A stretch of DNA of 46,584 bases. Source: a virus (taxonomy: Duplodnaviria > Caudoviricetes). The notes below the pieces were generated by a model, which worked only from the letters and a program-made list of their open reading frames with translations, ran no database searches and was not told the DNA's origin. The translations under genes and the position numbers were made by a program. The stretch is from positions 1 to 46,584 of IMG/VR virus record IMGVR_UViG_3300012940_000038. One strand, 5' to 3'. This document shows positions 6,399 through 30,931 of the stretch, piece by piece; the stretch's first letter is position 1; every line of letters starts with the position of its first letter.

Positions 6399-7442
6399 AT
6401 GTCTACCGTTGGTAGTCTGGCCCTGACCTATGCTGACTGGGCCAAGCGAATGGAAGAAGGCTACAAAGTCTCGGCCATCATCGAGCTTTTGTCGCAAACG
6501 AATGAAATCCTTGACGACATGTTGGTCGTCCAGGGCAACCTCCCGACTGGTCACAAGACCACAGTCCGCACTGGCCTTCCCCAGGCGACTTGGCGCTTGC
6601 TGAACCAGGGCGTCCCGAACGCGAAGTCGACCACGGCACAGATCGTCGATACCTGCGGTAATCTCGAGACCTATTCGGTCATCGATAAGGACATCGCCGA
6701 TCTGAACGGCAACACTGCCGAGTTCCGTCTCTCCGAGACGCGTGCCTTCCTCGAAGGTATGTCTCAGCAGGTTGCGTCGACCTTGATCTACGGCAACCAG
6801 TCTGTGAACCCCGAACGGTTCACCGGCTTTGCCCCCCGCTACTCGACGACCAACACGGCCAATTCGCAGACCGCGAATAACGTGATCTCGGCGGGTGGTA
6901 CCTCCAACACGAACACCTCGATCTGGGGCGTCGTTTGGGGTTCCGACACGTGGCATGCTACCTTCCCCATGGGGAAGATCACCGGCCTCCAGCATCGTGA
7001 CATGGGCGAGTGGCCCGTTCAGGATTCGGCCGGTAACACCTATCAGGCCTACCGCGATCACTACAAGTGGGAGATCGGTCTGGTCGGCCGTGACTGGCGT
7101 TACTGCTTCCGCATCCCGAACATCGATGTCACCCAGCTGACCGGCGTCAGCGCTGCGAACCTGATCAATCTGATCGTTCGTGGCCTGTACAAGCTGCCGA
7201 CGGCGCCGGTTTCTGCGACTGCGATCCAGACATCGGATACTCCGGCGGTGCGCGCTGACATGGGCCGTACGGTTCTGTACTGCAACCGTGTCATCCGCAC
7301 CTACCTCGATCTCCAGGCGATGAACAAGACCAACGTCTTGCTGCGCCTCGAAGAGTTCGATGGCAAGGTCATCACGACCTTCCGTGGTATCCCGGTTCGC
7401 ACCGTGGATGCGATCCTCAACAACGAAGCCCAGGTCCAGTAA
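6399..7442 (+). CDS. major capsid protein (BPP-1/epsilon15 type)
   Basis: 347 aa with IIELLSQTNEILDDM, RTGLPQATWR, PERFTGFAPRY and FRGIPVRTVDAILNNE. Strong codon bias. Confidence 0.93.
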   Translation: MSTVGSLALTYADWAKRMEEGYKVSAIIELLSQTNEILDDMLVVQGNLPTGHKTTVRTGLPQATWRLLNQGVPNAKSTTAQIVDTCGNLETYSVIDKDIADLNGNTAEFRLSETRAFLEGMSQQVASTLIYGNQSVNPERFTGFAPRYSTTNTANSQTANNVISAGGTSNTNTSIWGVVWGSDTWHATFPMGKITGLQHRDMGEWPVQDSAGNTYQAYRDHYKWEIGLVGRDWRYCFRIPNIDVTQLTGVSAANLINLIVRGLYKLPTAPVSATAIQTSDTPAVRADMGRTVLYCNRVIRTYLDLQAMNKTNVLLRLEEFDGKVITTFRGIPVRTVDAILNNEAQVQ

Positions 7443-7452
7443 GGAGCCTACA

Positions 7453-8010
7453 ATGATTCTCGATGGCCTGCTTCAATTCTGCGGCACTTCGAATGGTGCC
7501 ACTGGTGGCATCACCTCTGGTGCCAATACGGATGCTCCGACGACCGGCACTCAGGTGGCGTCGAACATCCTCGACCTCGGCATCACCAATGGCATTCCGA
7601 CTTCGGCCAATGGTGGTGGTGCTCGCGACATGGGTATCGGCGATGACCCGATGCTCAAGCTCCTGGTTCAGGTAACCACAGCCTTTGCTGACGGTACCTC
7701 GCTCCAGGTGATCCTGTCTGGCGCGCCTGACAATGGCTCTGGCGCCCCGGGCGCCTACACTACGATGTACACTTCGGAAGCGGTCCTTGAAGCATCGCTT
7801 ATCCCTGGTGCTTACATCGCCAACGTCGATGTCCCTCGTACTGTCCCGGGGCAGCCGCTGCCGCGCTTTCTGCGTCTGCAGTTTGTCACGGTCGGCACCC
7901 ACACTGCGGGCACTGTACAGGGTACTATCGTCCTGGATCGTTTCGACCAGATCGTCGGCACGACTGGGGCGCTGTCCGGCTATCCCGCCGGCATCAACGT
8001 CGCCAATTAA
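7453..8010 (+). CDS. capsid cement/decoration protein (Bbp16-like)
   Basis: Follows the capsid gene, with AAGGAG RBS, MILD start and SNILDLG...RDMGIG...PRFLRL pattern. Confidence 0.78.
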   Translation: MILDGLLQFCGTSNGATGGITSGANTDAPTTGTQVASNILDLGITNGIPTSANGGGARDMGIGDDPMLKLLVQVTTAFADGTSLQVILSGAPDNGSGAPGAYTTMYTSEAVLEASLIPGAYIANVDVPRTVPGQPLPRFLRLQFVTVGTHTAGTVQGTIVLDRFDQIVGTTGALSGYPAGINVAN

Positions 8011-8020
8011 GGAGGGACAG

Positions 8021-8647
8021 ATGCGATTCCGCACCCTCTTTATCGCTAGCGTGGTGGCAGTAGTCTCCGGACTACTCGCTGCCCACGCGCAGGTGCCGGG
8101 AGTGAATTCGACCCTCCAGTCGATCTTCACCCTGGCTTACGAAGTCTCGACATCGAAGCCGACCTATTCAGCTTCGTATATCGTGACTCCTTCGGGCGCA
8201 ATGAATGACATCTGCGTCCTCACAGGTTCGGCAACGAAGACTATTCGTGTCCGACGAATCTGGTTGAACGGCTACACTGCCACGGCCATGACCGATCCGG
8301 TTTCGGTTGTGAAACGCAGCAGTGTATCGACCAACGGTACGGGTGTTACAGTCACTCCTGTATCGTATAACTCACAGAACGCGGCTGGTACTGCTGTAGC
8401 CGAGTTCTACACTGCCTCGCCGACGAATGGGACTGCGGTGGGCGTCCTTCTGGACGTTTATCAGGGCTTCACGACTTCGACCAGTGGTACCGAGGAACCA
8501 AACCACACGTTTGAGTTTGGTCGCCTTGGGTCTCCGGTCTTCCTGCGTGGAGCTTCGCAGTCGATCGCGGTCAATCTCTCTGGCCTGACGTACACAGGCG
8601 CATCGTTCGCCTGCGGCTTTGAATGGACTGAGGATAACGACTCGTGA
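8021..8647 (+). CDS. secreted Ser/Thr-rich beta-strand protein with Sec signal peptide
   Basis: AAGGAGG RBS. N-terminus MRFRTLFIASVVAVVSGLLAAHA|QVP has a basic n-region, hydrophobic core and AxA site. Two Cys and a C-terminal Ser. Confidence 0.8.
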   Translation: MRFRTLFIASVVAVVSGLLAAHAQVPGVNSTLQSIFTLAYEVSTSKPTYSASYIVTPSGAMNDICVLTGSATKTIRVRRIWLNGYTATAMTDPVSVVKRSSVSTNGTGVTVTPVSYNSQNAAGTAVAEFYTASPTNGTAVGVLLDVYQGFTTSTSGTEEPNHTFEFGRLGSPVFLRGASQSIAVNLSGLTYTGASFACGFEWTEDNDS

Positions 8648-9486
8648 TGCCAATCACCACCGCCGGTATCAGTTTTGTTGTCTACGCATTGACCTCCCTT
8701 GCGTGGGCACCCGCCATAAACTGGCTGGCGGTGGTGAACCTTTTTGGAATGATCGTCGCATACTTGGCTGGGGTTTGGCTCTCAAATCCTCGCCAGGTAT
8801 GGACGTTCTTTTTGTGGATAGGTCTGGCCTTTGCAATTGACTATATCCTATCCCCGGATGTGAACCCTAATTATGCAGGTGCCTTCTTCGCTCTGGCACT
8901 AGCTGTTGCGCTGATAGAACTTCCGCTGATGGCGATACCTTACGCAGCCGCATTGCTTTATACGCAATCTCGTGGTGCGATTATCGCTGGAGCATCAGCC
9001 ATCATCATTCGCTACGCCTTTTGCTATCCGCTAGCCTGTCTCTTCATTGCCGTTGGCGCTCTTATCGCTGTGATGGAACAGAAAGTCCTTGGTGGTTCAA
9101 TGTATCAGCGGATTGGTGTATGGCAAGATACCCTGTCTCATCTAACCTTATTCGGCCATGGCCTTGGAAGCTTCCAGGCGGTCTATGAAACCTTTCCTGT
9201 CAAGACCAACATGGCAATGGCGCTTGCGCCGCACGCCTATAACGACTATCTCGAGGTTCTATTCCAATTCGGGATTGGTGGAATCTTCGGTCTGATCTTC
9301 GTCATGCTGATCATGGTTGAAGGCACTGGCCCTCGAGTGGTCCCAGTTACATTCTTGATCCTGGGCCTCACTTACTTCCCCCTATCAATCCCTGTCGTGG
9401 CGCAGGTCTTCACCTTCGCTCTAGGCACTCTCTCACAATCACTTCACGCCAACTATAGGAGCTTCAAATGGCGCGCTGGAGACTGA
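8644..9486 (+). CDS. O-antigen ligase / O-oligosaccharyltransferase (Wzy_C)-like multi-pass membrane protein
   Basis: Many hydrophobic segments plus NPNYAG, TQSRGA, YQRIGVW, LFGHGLGSF and HAYNDYLEVLFQFGIGG. Confidence 0.8.
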   Translation: MMPITTAGISFVVYALTSLAWAPAINWLAVVNLFGMIVAYLAGVWLSNPRQVWTFFLWIGLAFAIDYILSPDVNPNYAGAFFALALAVALIELPLMAIPYAAALLYTQSRGAIIAGASAIIIRYAFCYPLACLFIAVGALIAVMEQKVLGGSMYQRIGVWQDTLSHLTLFGHGLGSFQAVYETFPVKTNMAMALAPHAYNDYLEVLFQFGIGGIFGLIFVMLIMVEGTGPRVVPVTFLILGLTYFPLSIPVVAQVFTFALGTLSQSLHANYRSFKWRAGD

Positions 9487-9971
9487 CTGCCCCTCACTAC
9501 CTCATGGTGCAAGGGACCAACTGGGAATATAAGGAAGTCGATCGCAAGACGGGCCGACCGCAGACGGTTCGATTCCCTGTCCCGACTCTGCTCGACCCGA
9601 ACGATGTTTCCTATTGGACCCATCGCGAAGGTCCGGACTTCGGCATGATCATCGTGTCGAATGGCAACAAATCCGATCCGGCCGACATCATCTTTGTTGG
9701 CGATCCGACGCCGGATATGGTTCCCTTGGACGATGAAGCCAAGGAAATCTCTGCAAGTTTTGCGGAGAAGTGGAACCTCCCGGTCAACTTGCCTGACAAC
9801 TACAGCGAAGTTATTCTGGACACTCTCCAGAAAGAACTCGACGACGTTCGTACCAAGTCGCAGACTGTGCAGCTTGAAGGCATGGCCGAAATGCTCGGGG
9901 CCATGACTCAGATGATGCAACAGAACCAGGCCATCATTGCGGCCCTTACCAAATCGGAGACTCGACGCTAA
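9468..9971 (+). CDS. hypothetical protein
   Basis: 167 aa, AGGAG RBS, phage-like codon usage, helical C-terminus. Confidence 0.75.
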   Translation: MARWRLTAPHYLMVQGTNWEYKEVDRKTGRPQTVRFPVPTLLDPNDVSYWTHREGPDFGMIIVSNGNKSDPADIIFVGDPTPDMVPLDDEAKEISASFAEKWNLPVNLPDNYSEVILDTLQKELDDVRTKSQTVQLEGMAEMLGAMTQMMQQNQAIIAALTKSETRR

Positions 9972-10105
9972 TGCCCAGCAAGACACCGAAGCAGAAACGA
10001 ACGATGGCGGCTGCCGCCCACAATCCGAAGTTCGCCAAGAAGGTTGGCATCCCCCAGAAGGTTGCCAAGGAATTCAACCGCGCGGACAAGCGGAAGGGTA
10101 AGTGA
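9971..10105 (+). CDS. small basic protein (44 aa, MPSKTPKQKRTMAAAAHNPKFAKKVGIPQKVAKEFNRADKRKGK)
   Basis: Not in the ORF track. Fills the gap exactly, with TAATG and GTGA overlaps. Confidence 0.75.
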   Translation: MPSKTPKQKRTMAAAAHNPKFAKKVGIPQKVAKEFNRADKRKGK

Positions 10106-10491: not shown

Positions 10492-10854
10492 ATGGCTATT
10501 ATCTCCGGGGTAGGTTCTTCCCCATCCGTAGGCCCTACCTCCGGAGGTAAGGTCTACGCCTTCAATGCCCTTGATGCGGTGACGCCGGTGCAGGTTGCTC
10601 CGGCGAATCCTAATCGGCGCAAGATCACCTTCCACAATCCCGGCTCAGTTGATGTACTGATCTTTCCGCAGTATCAGCAGACCACCGGGTCGAACACTCC
10701 GCTGAATGTCACGACCTCGGCTCGTGGCGGCTCATTCCTTCTCTATGCGAATGGCGCCGATCGCACGATCGAAGGTGAATGCCAGGGCGCATGGTTTGCC
10801 TTGGCCGTCTCCGCAACCGGTAACCCTCTAACCGTGATGGATTCCAACTCATGA
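10492..10854 (+). CDS. small beta-rich putative virion protein
   Basis: AAGGA RBS, NPNRRKITFHNPG motif, no signal peptide. Coupled to the tailspike-like gene. Confidence 0.65.
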   Translation: MAIISGVGSSPSVGPTSGGKVYAFNALDAVTPVQVAPANPNRRKITFHNPGSVDVLIFPQYQQTTGSNTPLNVTTSARGGSFLLYANGADRTIEGECQGAWFALAVSATGNPLTVMDSNS

Positions 10855-12905
10855 AGCTTCGTTGTGATGGCATTACCTCCCTTATTCTGGGTGGCATTCT
10901 CTACTTCGGCTGCTTGCTGCCGGCAGATGCCCAGAACCCAACGTGTCCGACGAGGCCTCCGGGAGATAGCACTAATGCCTGCGCCAGTACGGCCTTTGTG
11001 CATTCGGCGTTGCCGGGTCAAATCCCGCTGACGCAATATCACTTTCTAATTGGTGATGCTTCAAACAAAGCTGCGGATACTGCCCTCGGTGGCGATTGCA
11101 CCTATACATCTTCCTATGGGATCGTCTGCACCAAGACGAATAACGTCCCCTTCGGGCCGTTCGCTACAGGCACTGACTCAGCCAATCTTACCAACCTAGG
11201 TGCGGACCTTTCGGCCTCTGGCGGCCTGCACGTAGGTGCCTTCACTGGCGACGTGTCCAAGTCGGCAGGATCGCTGGCAACCACCGTTACGGCGGTTCAG
11301 GGCAAGGCTTATCAGAACACGACCTATTCCAACGGCCAAGTTCCTACGTGGAATAGTGCAAATAATCGATTCCAACCTGGCTCTGGTGGGGGTGGTGGTG
11401 TATTCCCTGTATCGAATTATGGGTCTGTCTGTGATTACCGAGCCGCCAGCGATGGTGCAATGGCATCTGGGTCATCGACACTCACTACCTCAACCGGCCA
11501 GTTCCTCAGCACTGACGTTGGTAAGTACATTGCTGTCCAAGGCGCAGGCACGGCAGGTGCTACTCTATTTACGACCATTGCGGGGTATACGAACTCCAAC
11601 ACAGTAACACTGACCAACCCGAATGCGTCTGGCGGTGCTATTTCAGGCAAGTTCATTGAGTTCGGTACCGACGATACCGCGGCATTCCAGGCGGCTATTA
11701 ATGCCGCCATAACGAATAGCGGCGGCACAGTACAGATGCCGATGGGCTCTTGCTTCGTTACTCGACTGAACCTCGCTGGAATTTCTCTCTCAATCAATCT
11801 GCAGGGGTTTGGTGTCAATGGCACCAGAATTTTCCCCTTGCACAATTCCAGCTATGGAACCTCTAATGGTCATGTGATTGACCTCACTGGTTCTGCCTTT
11901 GTGAAGCTGAGCAACTTCCAGCTTGGCGCTTACTATACGTTGGCTCAACCTACGACCGGCATCTTTATGGCCCAGGTGGCTAGCAACGTATCGAACAGGA
12001 TTGAATTCTACCGACTGTATATCTCTGGTCAATACTCTGTGGCCACGCTGTATGATTACGGTGTGCCGTCGTCTGTGGCATGGGCGTCAGACTTCTACAA
12101 CTATACCCAAGGTGCCGGCTCGCATACGGTGATGTACTACACCGCCAATAATGCGGCCTCACTCACCTCCAGCTTTGCTACAGTCACATCTGGCACATTC
12201 TCTACCGGCGATTGGTCATTCTTCAAATGCGAGTTCCATAGGTTCGCTGGAGTGGGTGCAGCGTCGTCTGTGATCATCACAGAGGGCGTTCAGCTGCTTG
12301 GCTTCTATGGTGGTGTCATTTCCGGCGGTGCCAGCAGCTATGTACAATTCAACGGCACAAATGAGAATGTCCTATTCTCCAACATCGTATTCGAAACCGA
12401 GAGCGAACCCGTTGTTCCTGCTAATGCATATGCCATCAACGGTTCCCTTCGTGGATTGTATGCTCCACAGAGCTATTACATTCTCAGCGGGCAAATGTTT
12501 GGTGGCTCTGGAGCCCTGTCGGCTCTGATCAACAACACCCCATATCTGGCCAACTCTGGGTCAGCTATCAATCCAGGCACAACGTATGTTGGAACGGGTA
12601 TAGCTGATACTGTGGCTGCATCTAACGTCGCGTCGTTGATGACGGACACAGGTGTTGTTGCCAATATGCGGGCTACCACTTCGGCCTCGCCTGGTAGCGG
12701 GCAGTCTTATACGATTACGCTGCAGATAAACGGTGTTGACACAGGCATTACTTGTTCGATGTCAAATGCCGTTAACAGCTGCTCTGACACGACTCACTTT
12801 GCTAACGTACCTGCAGGTGCAAGTATCAACTTCAAGATCGTGTCGAGCGGTGGGGCTAACGTAACTAGGCTAGCTGCTTCTGTCTCTTTCACCCCCTTCA
12901 ACTAA
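10851..12905 (+). CDS. tailspike/depolymerase-like beta-helix protein with N-terminal signal peptide
   Basis: GTDDTAAFQAAINAA...GGTVQMPMG pectate-lyase-3-like beta-helix cap in a G/S/T-rich body. N-terminus MKLRCDGITSLILGGILYFGCLLPADA|Q. Confidence 0.75.
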   Translation: MKLRCDGITSLILGGILYFGCLLPADAQNPTCPTRPPGDSTNACASTAFVHSALPGQIPLTQYHFLIGDASNKAADTALGGDCTYTSSYGIVCTKTNNVPFGPFATGTDSANLTNLGADLSASGGLHVGAFTGDVSKSAGSLATTVTAVQGKAYQNTTYSNGQVPTWNSANNRFQPGSGGGGGVFPVSNYGSVCDYRAASDGAMASGSSTLTTSTGQFLSTDVGKYIAVQGAGTAGATLFTTIAGYTNSNTVTLTNPNASGGAISGKFIEFGTDDTAAFQAAINAAITNSGGTVQMPMGSCFVTRLNLAGISLSINLQGFGVNGTRIFPLHNSSYGTSNGHVIDLTGSAFVKLSNFQLGAYYTLAQPTTGIFMAQVASNVSNRIEFYRLYISGQYSVATLYDYGVPSSVAWASDFYNYTQGAGSHTVMYYTANNAASLTSSFATVTSGTFSTGDWSFFKCEFHRFAGVGAASSVIITEGVQLLGFYGGVISGGASSYVQFNGTNENVLFSNIVFETESEPVVPANAYAINGSLRGLYAPQSYYILSGQMFGGSGALSALINNTPYLANSGSAINPGTTYVGTGIADTVAASNVASLMTDTGVVANMRATTSASPGSGQSYTITLQINGVDTGITCSMSNAVNSCSDTTHFANVPAGASINFKIVSSGGANVTRLAASVSFTPFN

Positions 12906-12915
12906 GGAACGGAGC

Positions 12916-13143
12916 ATGAAACAAGGTAAAGCAACTCATTCGGGGACGGGTTCTACCAAAGTGGAACCCAAAGGCCACGCAGTCCCTCCGGCCTATGCGG
13001 CCTCGCTGGGATCGATGCGCGGCAATCACAGTGAGCGTGGAACCACCAAGCTCCAGACCATCCCAATGTACGAGGGCCGTGGTCTGCAAGCGCCGATGAA
13101 GTCCACCACCATTCACAACAAAGGCAGCCAAGGAAAGCACTAA
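12916..13143 (+). CDS. small basic protein ending HNKGSQGKH
   Basis: AAGGA/GGAG RBS, coupled to the next ORF. Confidence 0.7.
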   Translation: MKQGKATHSGTGSTKVEPKGHAVPPAYAASLGSMRGNHSERGTTKLQTIPMYEGRGLQAPMKSTTIHNKGSQGKH

Positions 13144-13409
13144 TGGAACTCTCAAAGGTCTACCTCCTGTTCGAAATCCTGCGTGAGGCGCGCGGGTATC
13201 CGAACCTCGGCAACATCGCCCGTGAGGCTCAGAAGCAGCTTCAAACGATCAATGACAATGTGGGTGCTCCGGCCGAGTCGCCGATGGATGCAGTGAACAA
13301 GGCTCAGTTCGTCGAGGAGCCGAAGTCCATCCCATCGGCTCAGTTCGAGCCGGAACCGACTGCGTTGGAGAACATCGTCGAACAAGAACCGATTGAGCGG
13401 AGGCTCTAA
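13143..13409 (+). CDS. hypothetical protein
   Basis: TAATG overlaps at both ends. Confidence 0.65.
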   Translation: MELSKVYLLFEILREARGYPNLGNIAREAQKQLQTINDNVGAPAESPMDAVNKAQFVEEPKSIPSAQFEPEPTALENIVEQEPIERRL

Positions 13410-13597
13410 TGGCGAAAGACATTCTCTCGCACTACGGACGCGATTCGACCAATCCGCAGTCTCCTCGGGCCACTTGTGGCGGAGTTAAGGAAGCCAAGCC
13501 GCTTCCCTACTCCCCGCCGAAGGGTCCGACGAACCAGATGCGCCAGGGCCCTGGCCTTGGCGGGACTGTTCACCCTAAGGGATCGCAGGGGAAGTAA
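13409..13597 (+). CDS. small basic protein ending HPKGSQGK
   Basis: GGAGG RBS, abuts tail tubular protein A. Confidence 0.7.
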   Translation: MAKDILSHYGRDSTNPQSPRATCGGVKEAKPLPYSPPKGPTNQMRQGPGLGGTVHPKGSQGK

Positions 13598-25670: not shown

Positions 25671-25892
25671 ATGAATAAGAGTCAGGTCTCTGGTATCAGC
25701 GAACGGCTTGTGTACGGTGTGGCGGTTGCCATCGCTGGCCTTGGCGTTAAGTGGGGCTGGTACGACAATGAAATGGCCGCCTATGTTGCGGGCGGTTTGG
25801 TTGCTGCGGCTGGTGGTATCTGGGCATGGTGGATCAACCGTCCGCAGGCGCTGATGAAGGCCGCTATCGATTCCCAAACGAAGGACGCGTAG
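25671..25892 (+). CDS. putative holin
   Basis: 73 aa with two hydrophobic helices, directly after the endolysin. Confidence 0.65.
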   Translation: MNKSQVSGISERLVYGVAVAIAGLGVKWGWYDNEMAAYVAGGLVAAAGGIWAWWINRPQALMKAAIDSQTKDA

Positions 25893-25893
25893 A

Positions 25894-26292
25894 ATGAGGA
25901 AGCTGCTCTTTGTCGTAACTCTGTCCCTAGGTCTGACAGCCTGCCAGACCTTGGACAACATTTCAACAGCGGTAACAATCGCCACCTCTGGCGTCGCCAA
26001 TCCGGTGACCAAGAACGATTTGTATGCGTTTGAGAATTCCCTGATCGTCGCCTTTGCTGGTTTGAAGGCGTACCGTCAGGCCTGTCTCGCCGAGGCTGTA
26101 GACAAGAATTGTAAGGCCAACATCCGGGCCATGCAGGTCTACACCCGGCAAATCCCGCCCCTGCTGACGCAGTTGCGGAACTTCGTGAAGAACAATGATC
26201 AAGTCAATGCGGCGGTGATGTTCGCTCAGGTGAAACAGCTTTACACCAACTTCAAGAACATCGCTCTGGCAAACGGAGTGGCTGTACAATGA
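25894..26292 (+). CDS. lipoprotein in lysis cassette (spanin candidate)
   Basis: MRKLLFVVTLSLGLTA|C lipobox. Confidence 0.65.
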   Translation: MRKLLFVVTLSLGLTACQTLDNISTAVTIATSGVANPVTKNDLYAFENSLIVAFAGLKAYRQACLAEAVDKNCKANIRAMQVYTRQIPPLLTQLRNFVKNNDQVNAAVMFAQVKQLYTNFKNIALANGVAVQ

Positions 26293-26498
26293 ATGTCGTT
26301 GGGGTACTACAAATCATCGCCAAAGGCATTTCCATTGCGGAGGCCTTATACAAGGCTGGCATGGAAGCTGAACCTGCCTTCGAAGCCTTGAAGAACCTGA
26401 TCACCGGTGCCCAGGAAGGCAACGTGACAGACGCACAGCTGGAGGATACCGAAGCCCTTCTTGACCAAATGATCGAAGACTTCAACCTCGACATCTAG
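26289..26498 (+). CDS. small amphipathic/acidic protein
   Basis: ATGA overlap with the lipoprotein gene. Confidence 0.65.
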   Translation: MNVVGVLQIIAKGISIAEALYKAGMEAEPAFEALKNLITGAQEGNVTDAQLEDTEALLDQMIEDFNLDI

Positions 26499-27978: not shown

Positions 27979-29463
27979 TTACTTCCGTTTGCGATCGAGG
28001 AAGTGGACCGGCGGGGTCCGCTTTCGATCATCGTGTCCTTTGTAGTCTTTCAGGCCATCAGGATTGTTGGGGCCGAAGTCTCCCCTGTTCCATCCGACCT
28101 TAGCGTCGTATGGGATTTTCATTGTGCGGCCGTTTTTGAGGGGGATTTCTTCTGTGAGTTGTGCTTGGAGTTTGGGGACGATTTCGTCTTCGAGTTCTTC
28201 GGGGTACATGAAGGTCAGGGCGTCGTGGTCTTGCAGCATGATAAGAGCGGTGCGCTCTCGCCAGATACGAAGCATGGCACGGTTGACGATATCCGCAAGG
28301 CTGCTTTGTGGATCGTAGGCGATCGCCTCGCGGAGGGTGGCCTCGTCATTCCGACGGCCCCAGAACTGGCGCTTTCTTCCCATAAGGGAGACTAAGGTTC
28401 CAACTCGCCGGAGTTGGTTATCCACCCATTCATGCCAGCCCATATGAGCCGGAAAGGCTCGGAAGTATTTGGGCTGGAAGTCTTCAACTACGGCGACTGG
28501 AAGTTTGGTCTGTGAGGATAGAGTTCCAGGTTTACCACCATAGTTAGAGCCGTGTCCGAGCTTCTTACACATGAAACGGTAAGAATAGTGTCGGTAGTAA
28601 GGTTGCTCTGCGATATCTTTATCCCGCTTGAGATCATTTGTCCAGGGCAGATTTGGCCAGCATATTTTTGCAACTGCTGTATGAACGTCTCCGGAGTCAA
28701 CGGCGTCGAGGTACTTTCCGTCTCCGAAGAGATTCCATTCGATGGCTCCGACGATGTAGGACTCTCCGGACTTGGCGTCGAACTTGGCGAACTTGTAACC
28801 GGGATCAGATATAAAGATTGACCGGAGTGACTCCTCAACATTTTGAAGATTCCCACCTGTTCCAAATTCAGAAAAGGAAGAAGAGAACCTCCCTGTAGAT
28901 GTACCAGCGATGTTGTATGAAGTTCGTATCCGTCCATCTGAATCAATCCCTGTCTTGAGGACCCCGATCTTCTTACCGAGGTCGCGCATGGCGATGATGT
29001 GGCGAACGATCTGCCTTGCGATAAGATAGTTCTCCATCTTCTCTAAGGCGTCACGGTTTACGGTAGGCTTGCCGCCCTTGAGAATTGGCGTGATCTTAAG
29101 GCGATCGTAGAACAGAACCTGGAGGTCGGTATTAGACCGCCAGTTGAACCCGGCCATTCCAACGCCTTCGAGAACGATGCGTTCCAGTTGGCTCTCGAGG
29201 AGTTCGATCTTTTCGTAGAACTCGTCAATGACTTCCGCCTTGCGGGCATGGTCAATGAGGATACCACGTAGGCCCATTTCTAGAACAGGGCCTTGAAGGG
29301 CGCGGGAGAAGTCATAAGTCGGGCCGGTGTAGCCATCGATTTGGTTGCGGATGTCGTTGAATATCTCAAGCGTGACACAGCAATCCAGGCCGTTGTAAAC
29401 CCACTCACGATCCATTTCGGACACGGAGTCGGGGCGCTCAAGGTGGGTACGGATGATTTTCAC
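27979..29463 (-). CDS. polA: family A DNA polymerase, polymerase subunit (carries only ExoIII)
   Basis: TSTGRFSS, NLQNV, motif A (FDAKSGESY), motif B (RFMCKKLGHGSNYG) and motif C (LQDHDAL). GTG start at 29463 overlaps the upstream stop. Confidence 0.92.
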   Translation of the reverse strand: MKIIRTHLERPDSVSEMDREWVYNGLDCCVTLEIFNDIRNQIDGYTGPTYDFSRALQGPVLEMGLRGILIDHARKAEVIDEFYEKIELLESQLERIVLEGVGMAGFNWRSNTDLQVLFYDRLKITPILKGGKPTVNRDALEKMENYLIARQIVRHIIAMRDLGKKIGVLKTGIDSDGRIRTSYNIAGTSTGRFSSSFSEFGTGGNLQNVEESLRSIFISDPGYKFAKFDAKSGESYIVGAIEWNLFGDGKYLDAVDSGDVHTAVAKICWPNLPWTNDLKRDKDIAEQPYYRHYSYRFMCKKLGHGSNYGGKPGTLSSQTKLPVAVVEDFQPKYFRAFPAHMGWHEWVDNQLRRVGTLVSLMGRKRQFWGRRNDEATLREAIAYDPQSSLADIVNRAMLRIWRERTALIMLQDHDALTFMYPEELEDEIVPKLQAQLTEEIPLKNGRTMKIPYDAKVGWNRGDFGPNNPDGLKDYKGHDDRKRTPPVHFLDRKRK

Positions 29464-29828
29464 TGATAGACATCCTTGACACACCGGAATGAAGCCCTCA
29501 TATTGGTGACTTCAGGGGTGCAATACAGCCTGTTGATCTTTCCGCAGGAAGGACACTTCCACTGACCTTCGCCCCTCTTCCAGTAATCCCCGTCGGTGCA
29601 GCCACTGGGGCTGACGTACCAATGAGTTTGGATGTACTCCAGAGTGTTGATGGGGAACCATTTGTTACAACCCTTACCGGTTGCCGTTTGATCCACACAC
29701 TGTACGAGGGTTTCGCCGGTCGCTTTCTTGGCTGCCTCTTCATGCCTCTTGATAATCTCTTCGGCAGCCTTAACTTCCTTAAGAGTGGGTCCTTTTACCT
29801 TGGCACGCTTAAACGGAATGCTGTTCAT
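29460..29828 (-). CDS. Cys-rich putative zinc-binding protein between the polymerase halves
   Basis: C-x9-C and WKCPSCG. Coupled on both sides by ATGA/GTGA overlaps. Confidence 0.7.
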   Translation of the reverse strand: MNSIPFKRAKVKGPTLKEVKAAEEIIKRHEEAAKKATGETLVQCVDQTATGKGCNKWFPINTLEYIQTHWYVSPSGCTDGDYWKRGEGQWKCPSCGKINRLYCTPEVTNMRASFRCVKDVYQ

Positions 29829-30931
29829 TCGTCCCTCTTAATCGTTTTCGTCCCACGGCGTTCAGTCTTCCAGGCGCTTTCGTCGGAGTAGATCGAACCC
29901 AAGTAGCCGAGGCCCTTCAAACTTTCTGGTTGAAGCGCGTGGTGTAGAAGCATGGTGTCTTCGGCTGCTCCACGAACTCCAATTCCGACAGAGCGCATGA
30001 GGAAGGCGATGTCATAGAGTCCGTTTTGGAAGAGCTTAGGGATTTCTCGATCGACAAGAACTCGTCTAATAACTTTCCAAACACTGAGTTCAGTTTGGTG
30101 ATCTCTCCAGTAACTTCCATCTTTTGCTCGAGAGTCATAGAAAGGTATAACGAGCGCATTTTGTGGGGATGGCGAGAAACCGATGCATGTAATCTGGTTG
30201 CCAGCCGTTTCAATGTCAACAGAAAGAAGGCAATCTCGACTGATGTATTTGGCACAGAATTCCTCCACATCCTCTAGGGTTGGCTCGATCCAAATCTCAC
30301 GTTCGGGTCGGCGGATTTCAGGGAAGTGACACTCACGGCTGGCCTTAACGAAGTCGGCTACCGTGGTCGGACGAAGTTCCCATTGGCGAAGGACGGCAGC
30401 CGGGTGGTATGTTGGAAGAACCTTAAATCCAGCAGCACAATGAGTGGATAGCCGGGTAGTTCCTCGAACGCGAGATATTCCCGTGGCCCCGCAGAGCGCC
30501 CATAGAGCGGCGTTGCCCATGGCGATAACCAAGTTCGGGTCCACTTCGATGAGTTCGTCACCAAGCCTGTCGAGTTCTGGGGCGTATTCTTCTTGGACAT
30601 ATCCAGGTCCTTTGGTGGAAAGCTTTGGGTACCCAGGAAGGGCGGTTCCCTTCGGCCCGCAAAAGGCTTCGATCCTGTTCCCTTGTGGATGGCGATTGAA
30701 GACGTTGGTCCGGTAGAATTCAGGGTGAAGGCGCCAGACCATTTCGATTTGGTTCGGGTCGGACGTTGACCAGAACCGGGAGATATAGCTTTGGTCTTCG
30801 GAGGTTAGAGTGAGGAGACCGGAGTCGTTAAGCATTCGCAGAAGTTCGATGCCACTGGCGCCAACGAATGAGGATTTGATACGTTCTTCGTTGGCACCAA
30901 GGGCTTCGCCGAGGAGGACGATTGGTTTCAT
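29825..30931 (-). CDS. uracil-DNA glycosylase (family 4-like) fused to partial 3'-5' exonuclease
   Basis: UDG motifs LLGEALGANE..FVGASG and PTYHPAAVLR. Exonuclease motifs SVDIET (ExoI), FQNGLYDI (ExoII) and EDTMLLHH. Confidence 0.85.
   Translation of the reverse strand: MKPIVLLGEALGANEERIKSSFVGASGIELLRMLNDSGLLTLTSEDQSYISRFWSTSDPNQIEMVWRLHPEFYRTNVFNRHPQGNRIEAFCGPKGTALPGYPKLSTKGPGYVQEEYAPELDRLGDELIEVDPNLVIAMGNAALWALCGATGISRVRGTTRLSTHCAAGFKVLPTYHPAAVLRQWELRPTTVADFVKASRECHFPEIRRPEREIWIEPTLEDVEEFCAKYISRDCLLSVDIETAGNQITCIGFSPSPQNALVIPFYDSRAKDGSYWRDHQTELSVWKVIRRVLVDREIPKLFQNGLYDIAFLMRSVGIGVRGAAEDTMLLHHALQPESLKGLGYLGSIYSDESAWKTERRGTKTIKRDE

Follow-up and report, generated by a model that had tools for sequence, protein, structure and literature searches.

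The subject of this analysis is a pair of overlapping late genes in the genome of an uncultivated short-tailed phage. The window, meaning the whole stretch of DNA analysed, comprises the 46,584 nucleotides of the IMG/VR virus record IMGVR_UViG_3300012940_000038, and positions refer to it. Directly behind its capsid and cement genes it encodes a predicted exported jelly-roll protein (8021-8647, hereafter the partner) and a WaaL/Wzy_C-fold membrane protein (8644-9486, hereafter the ligase, without prejudice to its activity). Based on sequence, the ligase belongs to a distinct, shortened WaaL-fold lineage in which tyrosine occupies the column of the catalytic histidine (Tyr-type). Three things are added by the window: this lineage is tied to one subfamily of the partner, export of proteins from the same genomic slot extends to relatives without a ligase, and the model of an initial annotation, in which the C-terminal serine of the partner is glycosylated, is refuted. 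The reading tentatively preferred is that of a linked late module which would place host glycan on internal Ser/Thr residues of an exported decoration protein in the periplasm. The features of the pair are as follows.

8010-8015, plus strand: Shine-Dalgarno sequence AGGAGG of the partner gene (from sequence)
8021-8647, plus strand: predicted exported single jelly-roll protein, 208 amino acids (aa), ligase-linked subfamily, Cys65/Cys198
8021-8089, plus strand: predicted Sec/signal peptidase I (SPase I) signal peptide, AHA followed by Q (script counts in 120 homologs)
8102-8152, plus strand: helix near the N-terminus (residues 28-44), found in the ligase-linked subfamily and not in the other (structure model; pattern in homologs)
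8630-8649, plus strand: coupling junction, with GAGGA within Glu-Asp codons and TGA overlapping GTG and ATG (from sequence)
8644-9486, plus strand: WaaL/Wzy_C-fold membrane protein, 280 aa; Arg110 (8971), Arg156 (9109) and Tyr199 (9238)

The partner gene starts at an ATG ten bases past the cement stop, behind a strong ribosome binding site, and with 147 homologs it was accepted as a real gene. Its product has a basic and then hydrophobic N-terminus leading to AHA and Gln, a Ser+Thr content of 25.5% and the C-terminus EDNDS. In the 120 homologs in which the signal region was scored by script, residue -1 was Ala or Gly in every case and the n-region was basic in 119; no acidic residue occurred, the length was 18-28 residues, and Gln at +1 of the predicted cleavage site was invariant. 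With its basic n-region, hydrophobic core and small residues at -3 and -1, the protein is predicted to be a Sec/SPase I substrate. The fold predicted for it is a jelly roll resembling cement and turret proteins, and it matched no pilin family in Pfam. Two subfamilies were distinguished. The helix pattern with Ser30, Thr31, Ser43 and Thr44 is present in 22 ligase-linked members, most of which were retrieved with patterns from that same subfamily, and is missing from 24 ligase-less members; Cys65 and Cys198 are found in most of the former, while the latter place their cysteine pair elsewhere. The two cysteines probably form a disulfide, and the four conserved hydroxyl residues of the helix are candidate acceptor sites. 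The Ser/Thr richness noted in the initial annotation is real but does not set this subfamily apart, the content being 23.4% in ligase-linked and 23.2% in ligase-less partners. In one relative (L027:123-806) the exported gene is in two pieces and in another (L124:8065-8202) a 45-aa remnant is left, through either assembly error or decay.

The ligase is a multi-pass protein of 280 or 279 aa, depending on the start codon, with the motifs SRGA, RIGVW, GHGLGSF and HAYNDYL...GIGG. It has 13 close homologs and 763 representatives at E<=1e-30 in a profile search, and is therefore a real gene. The window's own protein gave no Pfam match up to E 10; its assignment to Wzy_C is based on its relatives, 28 of 32 of which matched PF04932 (Wzy_C) at E<=0.01 when aligned, and on its fold. 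The domain search suggested by the initial annotation was thus positive for the family and negative for the protein itself. A profile of the family gave a single match in the PDB, the WaaL of Cupriavidus metallidurans (7TPG, E 9.6e-8). The AlphaFold2 model (predicted local distance difference test score 93.9) likewise had 7TPG as its top Foldseek match, with a template modelling (TM) score of 0.62, followed by FtsW/RodA, and its structure matches in the Atlas were Wzy_C proteins (TM 0.79-0.85). The WaaL/Wzy_C fold proposed at the outset is upheld, as are the ribosome binding site, Sec-type N-terminus, two cysteines, EDNDS terminus, GTGA overlap and multi-pass motifs, all present as described, and the cleavable-type signal features, which proved to be conserved in the 120 homologs.

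In the alignment to the C. metallidurans enzyme, Arg110 corresponds to Arg191, Arg156 to Arg265 and Tyr199 to His313. In WaaL, Arg191 and Arg265 bind the phosphates of undecaprenyl pyrophosphate (Und-PP), and His313 is the proposed activator of the acceptor (PMC10920833). Homologs were aligned (n=161; the top 150 of 8677 profile matches, the remaining close homologs and six locus proteins), and the His313 column was found to hold Tyr in 82 proteins and His in the other 79, the median lengths being 292 and 372 aa, respectively. Across the 82 Tyr-type proteins, which have a mean column identity of 34%, Arg156 and Asp201 are present in 82/82, Pro246 is invariant, Arg110 is kept in 81/82 and His197, two residues upstream of Tyr199, in 76/82; Asn76 is near-invariant. 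The HxxN motif of the initial annotation is present, but its histidine is not the catalytic one, that column being Tyr199. A FastTree tree required two changes for the Tyr-type proteins, which form nearly one group, and a single origin is possible on these sequences. The retained arginines, together with His197 and Asp201, fit a protein that still binds its Und-PP-linked donor. In one relative (L009:6992-8892) a Tyr-type and a His-type ligase gene form a tandem, behind which lie several signal-peptide genes.

The two genes are linked well beyond the window, as the initial annotation had anticipated. Thirty loci were compared, namely the 43 examined plus L044, minus one-contig duplicates, the window's own contig and five loci cut before the partner stop. 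The ligase lies downstream of the partner, in the same order as in the window, in 27 of the 30; two of the exceptions (L017, L022) end within 100 nt and the third (L042) has no ligase in the following 1 kb. Where more than 200 nt of downstream sequence was available, the order was kept in 27/28 loci, at about 38-48% mean identity, with a HNH-like gene inserted between partner and ligase in two loci (L004, L032) and an 81-aa gene in another (L019). All 22 linked loci which reach the motif have Tyr at the catalytic column.

A control set was chosen by capsid only, from the best 80 of 595 matches to the window's capsid in IMG/VR. The cement gene was present in 75 of these loci, 63 were distinct, and 43 spanned the slot from the cement gene to a downstream 167-aa gene. 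These 43 slots contained the partner family with a ligase in 4 cases, the family alone in 18, a ligase alone in 2 and neither in 19. A simple script rule scored the N-terminus encoded by the gene next to cement as signal-like in 41/43, and a ligase was present in only 6/43, so export is considered a clade-wide trait and the ligase an accessory. This trait, which like the Tyr column escaped the initial annotation, is worth study apart from the ligase. Wzy_C was absent genome-wide from 11 ligase-less records (nine of them at least 90% complete; L028 excluded), and two positive records were detected by the same search. Among the 80 loci, the ligase-linked partner subfamily was accompanied by a Tyr-type ligase in 5/5 cases and the other subfamily never was, and no Tyr-type ligase occurred apart from the ligase-linked subfamily. 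On a capsid tree of 54 rows, 14 of them pair-bearing phages, the pair required 8 changes, at least 3 of which are forced by strong branches, compared to 12.6 in shuffles. The pair is thus clustered, yet on this tree both genes have been acquired or lost together on several occasions. Other gene orders were seen in L047:8309-13973 (His-type) and L048:2-1439, in which a Wzy_C-like gene is near signal-peptide and terminase- or internal-virion-like genes.

Based on these observations the module may operate as follows. The partner would be exported by Sec, its signal cleaved and its Cys65-Cys198 pair oxidised. The Tyr-type enzyme would bind a host-made Und-PP-linked glycan and move it to internal Ser/Thr residues of the partner, probably in the subfamily-specific N-terminal arm, with catalysis by the neighbouring His197 or by the invariant Asp201/Tyr199. 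The glycosylated partner would then meet capsids, and bind them as decoration, once lysis opens the inner membrane. The glycan is taken to be host-derived because no glycosyltransferase family was found among the 62 window open reading frames scanned, as the initial annotation had stated. Several O-oligosaccharyltransferases (O-OTases) have their substrate gene nearby (PMC12645811).

Some results weigh against glycan transfer by this module. The catalytic His is replaced by Tyr in 82/161 homologs forming nearly one tree group; TfpM requires a His (PMC9829042), so activity of the Tyr-type enzyme is not to be assumed; and the sequence distances of partner and ligase are weakly correlated (r 0.27, p 0.07, n 14). 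The first two point to a Tyr-type protein that is not catalytic, an explanation judged unlikely, although it survives better than the other alternatives. Such a protein would bind Und-PP or Und-PP-glycan and serve as membrane anchor or chaperone for the partner, or would sequester the carrier lipid late in infection, in which case O-antigen ligation drops and progeny avoid sticking to debris. The shortening of the lineage (median 292 compared to 372 aa) agrees with it, the tandem in L009 suggests different jobs for the two types, and the extra helix of the partner could be a docking element. However, His197, Asp201, Asn76 and both arginines stay near-invariant, and the base can differ: related GT-C (glycosyltransferase C fold) families have Asp or Glu instead of His (PMC10920833), for which reason loss of activity is not to be assumed either. 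A fixed partner, moreover, is not needed for sequestration alone.

A second explanation is remodelling of the cell surface, in which O-antigen or another glycan is ligated or polymerised for receptor masking or exclusion, the exported protein being an envelope protein or decoy and not the substrate. The phiV10-like phages, which are serotype converters, are among the nearest named capsid relatives of the window, all of which have identities of <=54%. Wzy_C does not tell ligases from OTases (PMC12645811), and D3, phi297, PP9W and VarioGold are phages known to carry Wzy_C genes (PMC9658991). The VarioGold gene, however, is moron-like, lies opposite the late genes and belongs to a temperate phage (PMC9658991), whereas the ligase of the window overlaps its neighbour inside the capsid operon. 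No integrase of the tyrosine or serine recombinase families (PF00589, PF00239) was found in the window and 10 relatives, all at least 90% complete, in a search whose positive controls matched in 14/14 and 12/14 genomes; the search addresses integrase families, and lysogeny may be reached by other routes. Strict pairing with one partner subfamily would also be unexpected, and surface remodelling is regarded as rather improbable. One clade member with the pair (L044) was met in a metagenome-assembled genome of Terriglobia, on a scaffold of 36 kb, as a result of either a prophage or mis-binning.

Poorer still is the case for two independent proteins that hitch-hike in a recombining cassette, in which case the substrates of the enzyme would be other exported phage proteins, for example the 684-aa fibre. 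The slot is indeed a hypervariable cassette, with 1-6 signal-bearing genes between the cement and tail genes (23 records; L049-L124), L042 has the partner with no ligase in the 1 kb downstream, and the weak co-divergence of the two proteins, already given, points the same way; the corresponding distances for cement and the 167-aa gene gave r 0.54 (p 0.0015). Against this, the order of the pair persists in 27/28 loci while the other cassette genes turn over, and in the capsid-chosen set the Tyr-type ligase keeps to its partner.

The C-terminus of the partner was examined at the gene junction. The stop codon TGA (8645-8647) overlaps both possible ligase starts, GTG at 8644 and ATG at 8647, and the terminal Ser codon provides the G of the GTG start. 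The last residue of the 27 ligase-linked partners is Glu in 14, Pro in 5, Asp in 5, and Thr, Asn and Ser in 1 each. Among the 120 homologs 70 end in WTEE and 31 in Ser or Thr, 28 of these, the window included, in Ser, so that terminal Ser, whose conservation the initial annotation had proposed to check, is not the rule. At the junctions the codons past WT often read GAGGA, and an extra 2-4 residues bridge to the overlapping start. The tail is therefore explained as the spacer from a GAGGA Shine-Dalgarno sequence to the ligase start. Since the substrates of TfpO and TfpM must end in Ser/Thr (PMC9829042), which linked partners seldom do (2/27), and since the catalytic His is missing from an enzyme far smaller than TfpO, glycosylation of the C-terminal Ser by a TfpO-like enzyme is highly improbable, despite the 28/120 Ser-terminated homologs and an upstream-substrate layout like that of tfpO and tfpM. 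Of the original proposal, the fold, signal and linkage stand and the TfpO-type mechanism falls. In four other phages of the clade (L057:8562-10114, L064:2062-3566, L099:9069-10618 and L082:4653-6256) a His-type ligase with intact HN lies behind an exported protein of another family, about 140-155 aa long, which also occurs without a ligase. This family ends in Cys-x-Ser-x-Ser in 3 of the 4 phages, a better match to a TfpO-like terminal-Ser model than the window.

The remaining features belong to a BPP-1-like short-tailed podophage, represented by a 46.6-kb record that is 96% complete. Those that flank the pair are listed here.

6399-7442, plus strand: major capsid protein, GP7 / BPP-1-type (Pfam PF20911, E 1e-128; phrog_212)
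7453-8010, plus strand: Bbp16-type cement protein, without signal peptide (Pfam PF21190, E 1.7e-8; 2613 homologs)
9468-9971, plus strand: 167-aa core gene closing the slot, its 5' end overlapping the ligase 3' end, without Pfam or PHROG match
10851-12905, plus strand: late protein of 684 aa, signal-peptide-bearing, fibre/spike-like, 11 Cys (phrog_32881, E 9e-14)

Genes for terminase, a BPP-1-type portal, tail tubular and internal virion proteins and an endolysin were also identified, and a replication arm with DNA polymerase A is encoded on the opposite strand. No promoter- or terminator-like match was found on the plus strand between the cement and partner genes. The 167-aa gene is downstream in most long loci, whether a ligase is present or not. 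The 684-aa protein has a signal and then a two-Cys motif, common to the signal-bearing fibre genes of many relatives. Three small basic genes of no known family (9971-10105, 12916-13143 and 13409-13597; 44, 75 and 62 aa) are kept ahead of the tail genes clade-wide, two of them with a similar GSQG-K tail. After the endolysin (25671-26498) are genes for a hydrophobic 73-aa, a lipobox-like 132-aa (25894-26292) and a 69-aa protein without Pfam match, possibly a non-canonical holin/spanin set; the lipobox-like sequence suggests a diderm host. DNA polymerase A is split over two genes (27979-30931), the upstream one having a uracil-DNA glycosylase-like domain fused to a 3'-5' exonuclease.

Neither protein of the pair matched any of 50,697 GenBank phage records, and neither a phage O-OTase nor virion proteins exported by Sec were found described in the searched literature, which covered few subscription journals. 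The virions of tailed phages are generally regarded as being assembled in the cytoplasm; if the exported slot proteins end on virions, the assembly route is undescribed. Taken as a whole, the data allow a wider but more doubtful picture of a large lytic podophage clade in which virion assembly would take place partly outside the cytoplasm, with Sec-exported, periplasm-oxidised decoration and fibre proteins loaded on capsids at lysis, and with one lineage that would have dedicated a minimal Tyr-type OTase to one decoration protein, coating its virions in host glycan. The system would be categorically new if both virion loading and glycan transfer hold true. A Tyr-type enzyme that transfers glycan would be the first phage O-OTase and, at 280 aa, the smallest known; its catalytic arrangement would be new and its acceptor tag a dedicated one, useful for the study of GT-C mechanism and for glycoengineering, in a phage wearing host glycan. 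If inactive, it would be a conserved pseudo-ligase.

The ligase resembles WaaL (CAZy GT121; C. metallidurans, PDB 7TPG/7TPJ) in its GT-C fold, in the Arg191 and Arg265 columns and in a periplasmic loop with GxG and an x-X10-G spacing (Tyr199...Gly210 in the window). It differs in size (280 compared to 413 aa), in the change of His313 to Tyr, and in the position of its gene, which overlaps that of an exported protein in a phage capsid operon. With TfpO/PilO and TfpM it shares the location of a Wzy_C-type enzyme directly 3' of the gene for a secreted two-Cys protein (PMC9829042). The partner in the window, however, has a jelly-roll fold and an SPase I-type signal, is not a type IV pilin and lacks a conserved terminal Ser/Thr, and the TfpO/TfpM enzymes are described as having 420-470 aa and a conserved His (PMC9829042), His286 of TfpM probably corresponding to the Tyr199 column. 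PglL and PglS, the latter with ComP as its dedicated neighbour, use an internal Ser/Thr acceptor, as proposed for the window (PMC9829042, PMC12645811). They are proteins of 520-600 aa with PglL_A and Wzy_C_2, about twice the size of the window protein, and neither domain was found among 32 members of its family; the candidate sites of the partner are in a helix and not in a disordered region. In setting a WaaL-fold GT-C enzyme next to an exported protein the window is comparable to PglS/ComP and TfpO/PilA, but its enzyme departs from WaaL, TfpO/TfpM and PglL/PglS alike in a defining feature.

Among phages, Pseudomonas phages D3, phi297 and PP9W and Variovorax phage VarioGold also encode Wzy_C proteins, and VG_p25 of the last is beside a signal-peptide gene but has 411 aa (PMC9658991). 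The Wzy of serotype-converting phages is a gene of temperate phages, whereas the window and its relatives were found without PF00589 and PF00239 in the 11 genomes mentioned above. Freeman et al. (2023) reportedly described glycosylation of mycobacteriophage virions, in which cytoplasmic nucleotide-sugar glycosyltransferases act on capsid and tail proteins. The likeness is that virion proteins are glycosylated by a phage-encoded system; the window differs in the proposed en-bloc periplasmic enzyme and in the export of the proteins. Bordetella phage BPP-1 shares with the window the gene order scaffold/protease, major capsid, Bbp16 cement, tail tubular, but a single 68-aa gene lies between its cement and tail genes, where phages of the window clade carry a whole cassette encoding signal-peptide proteins.
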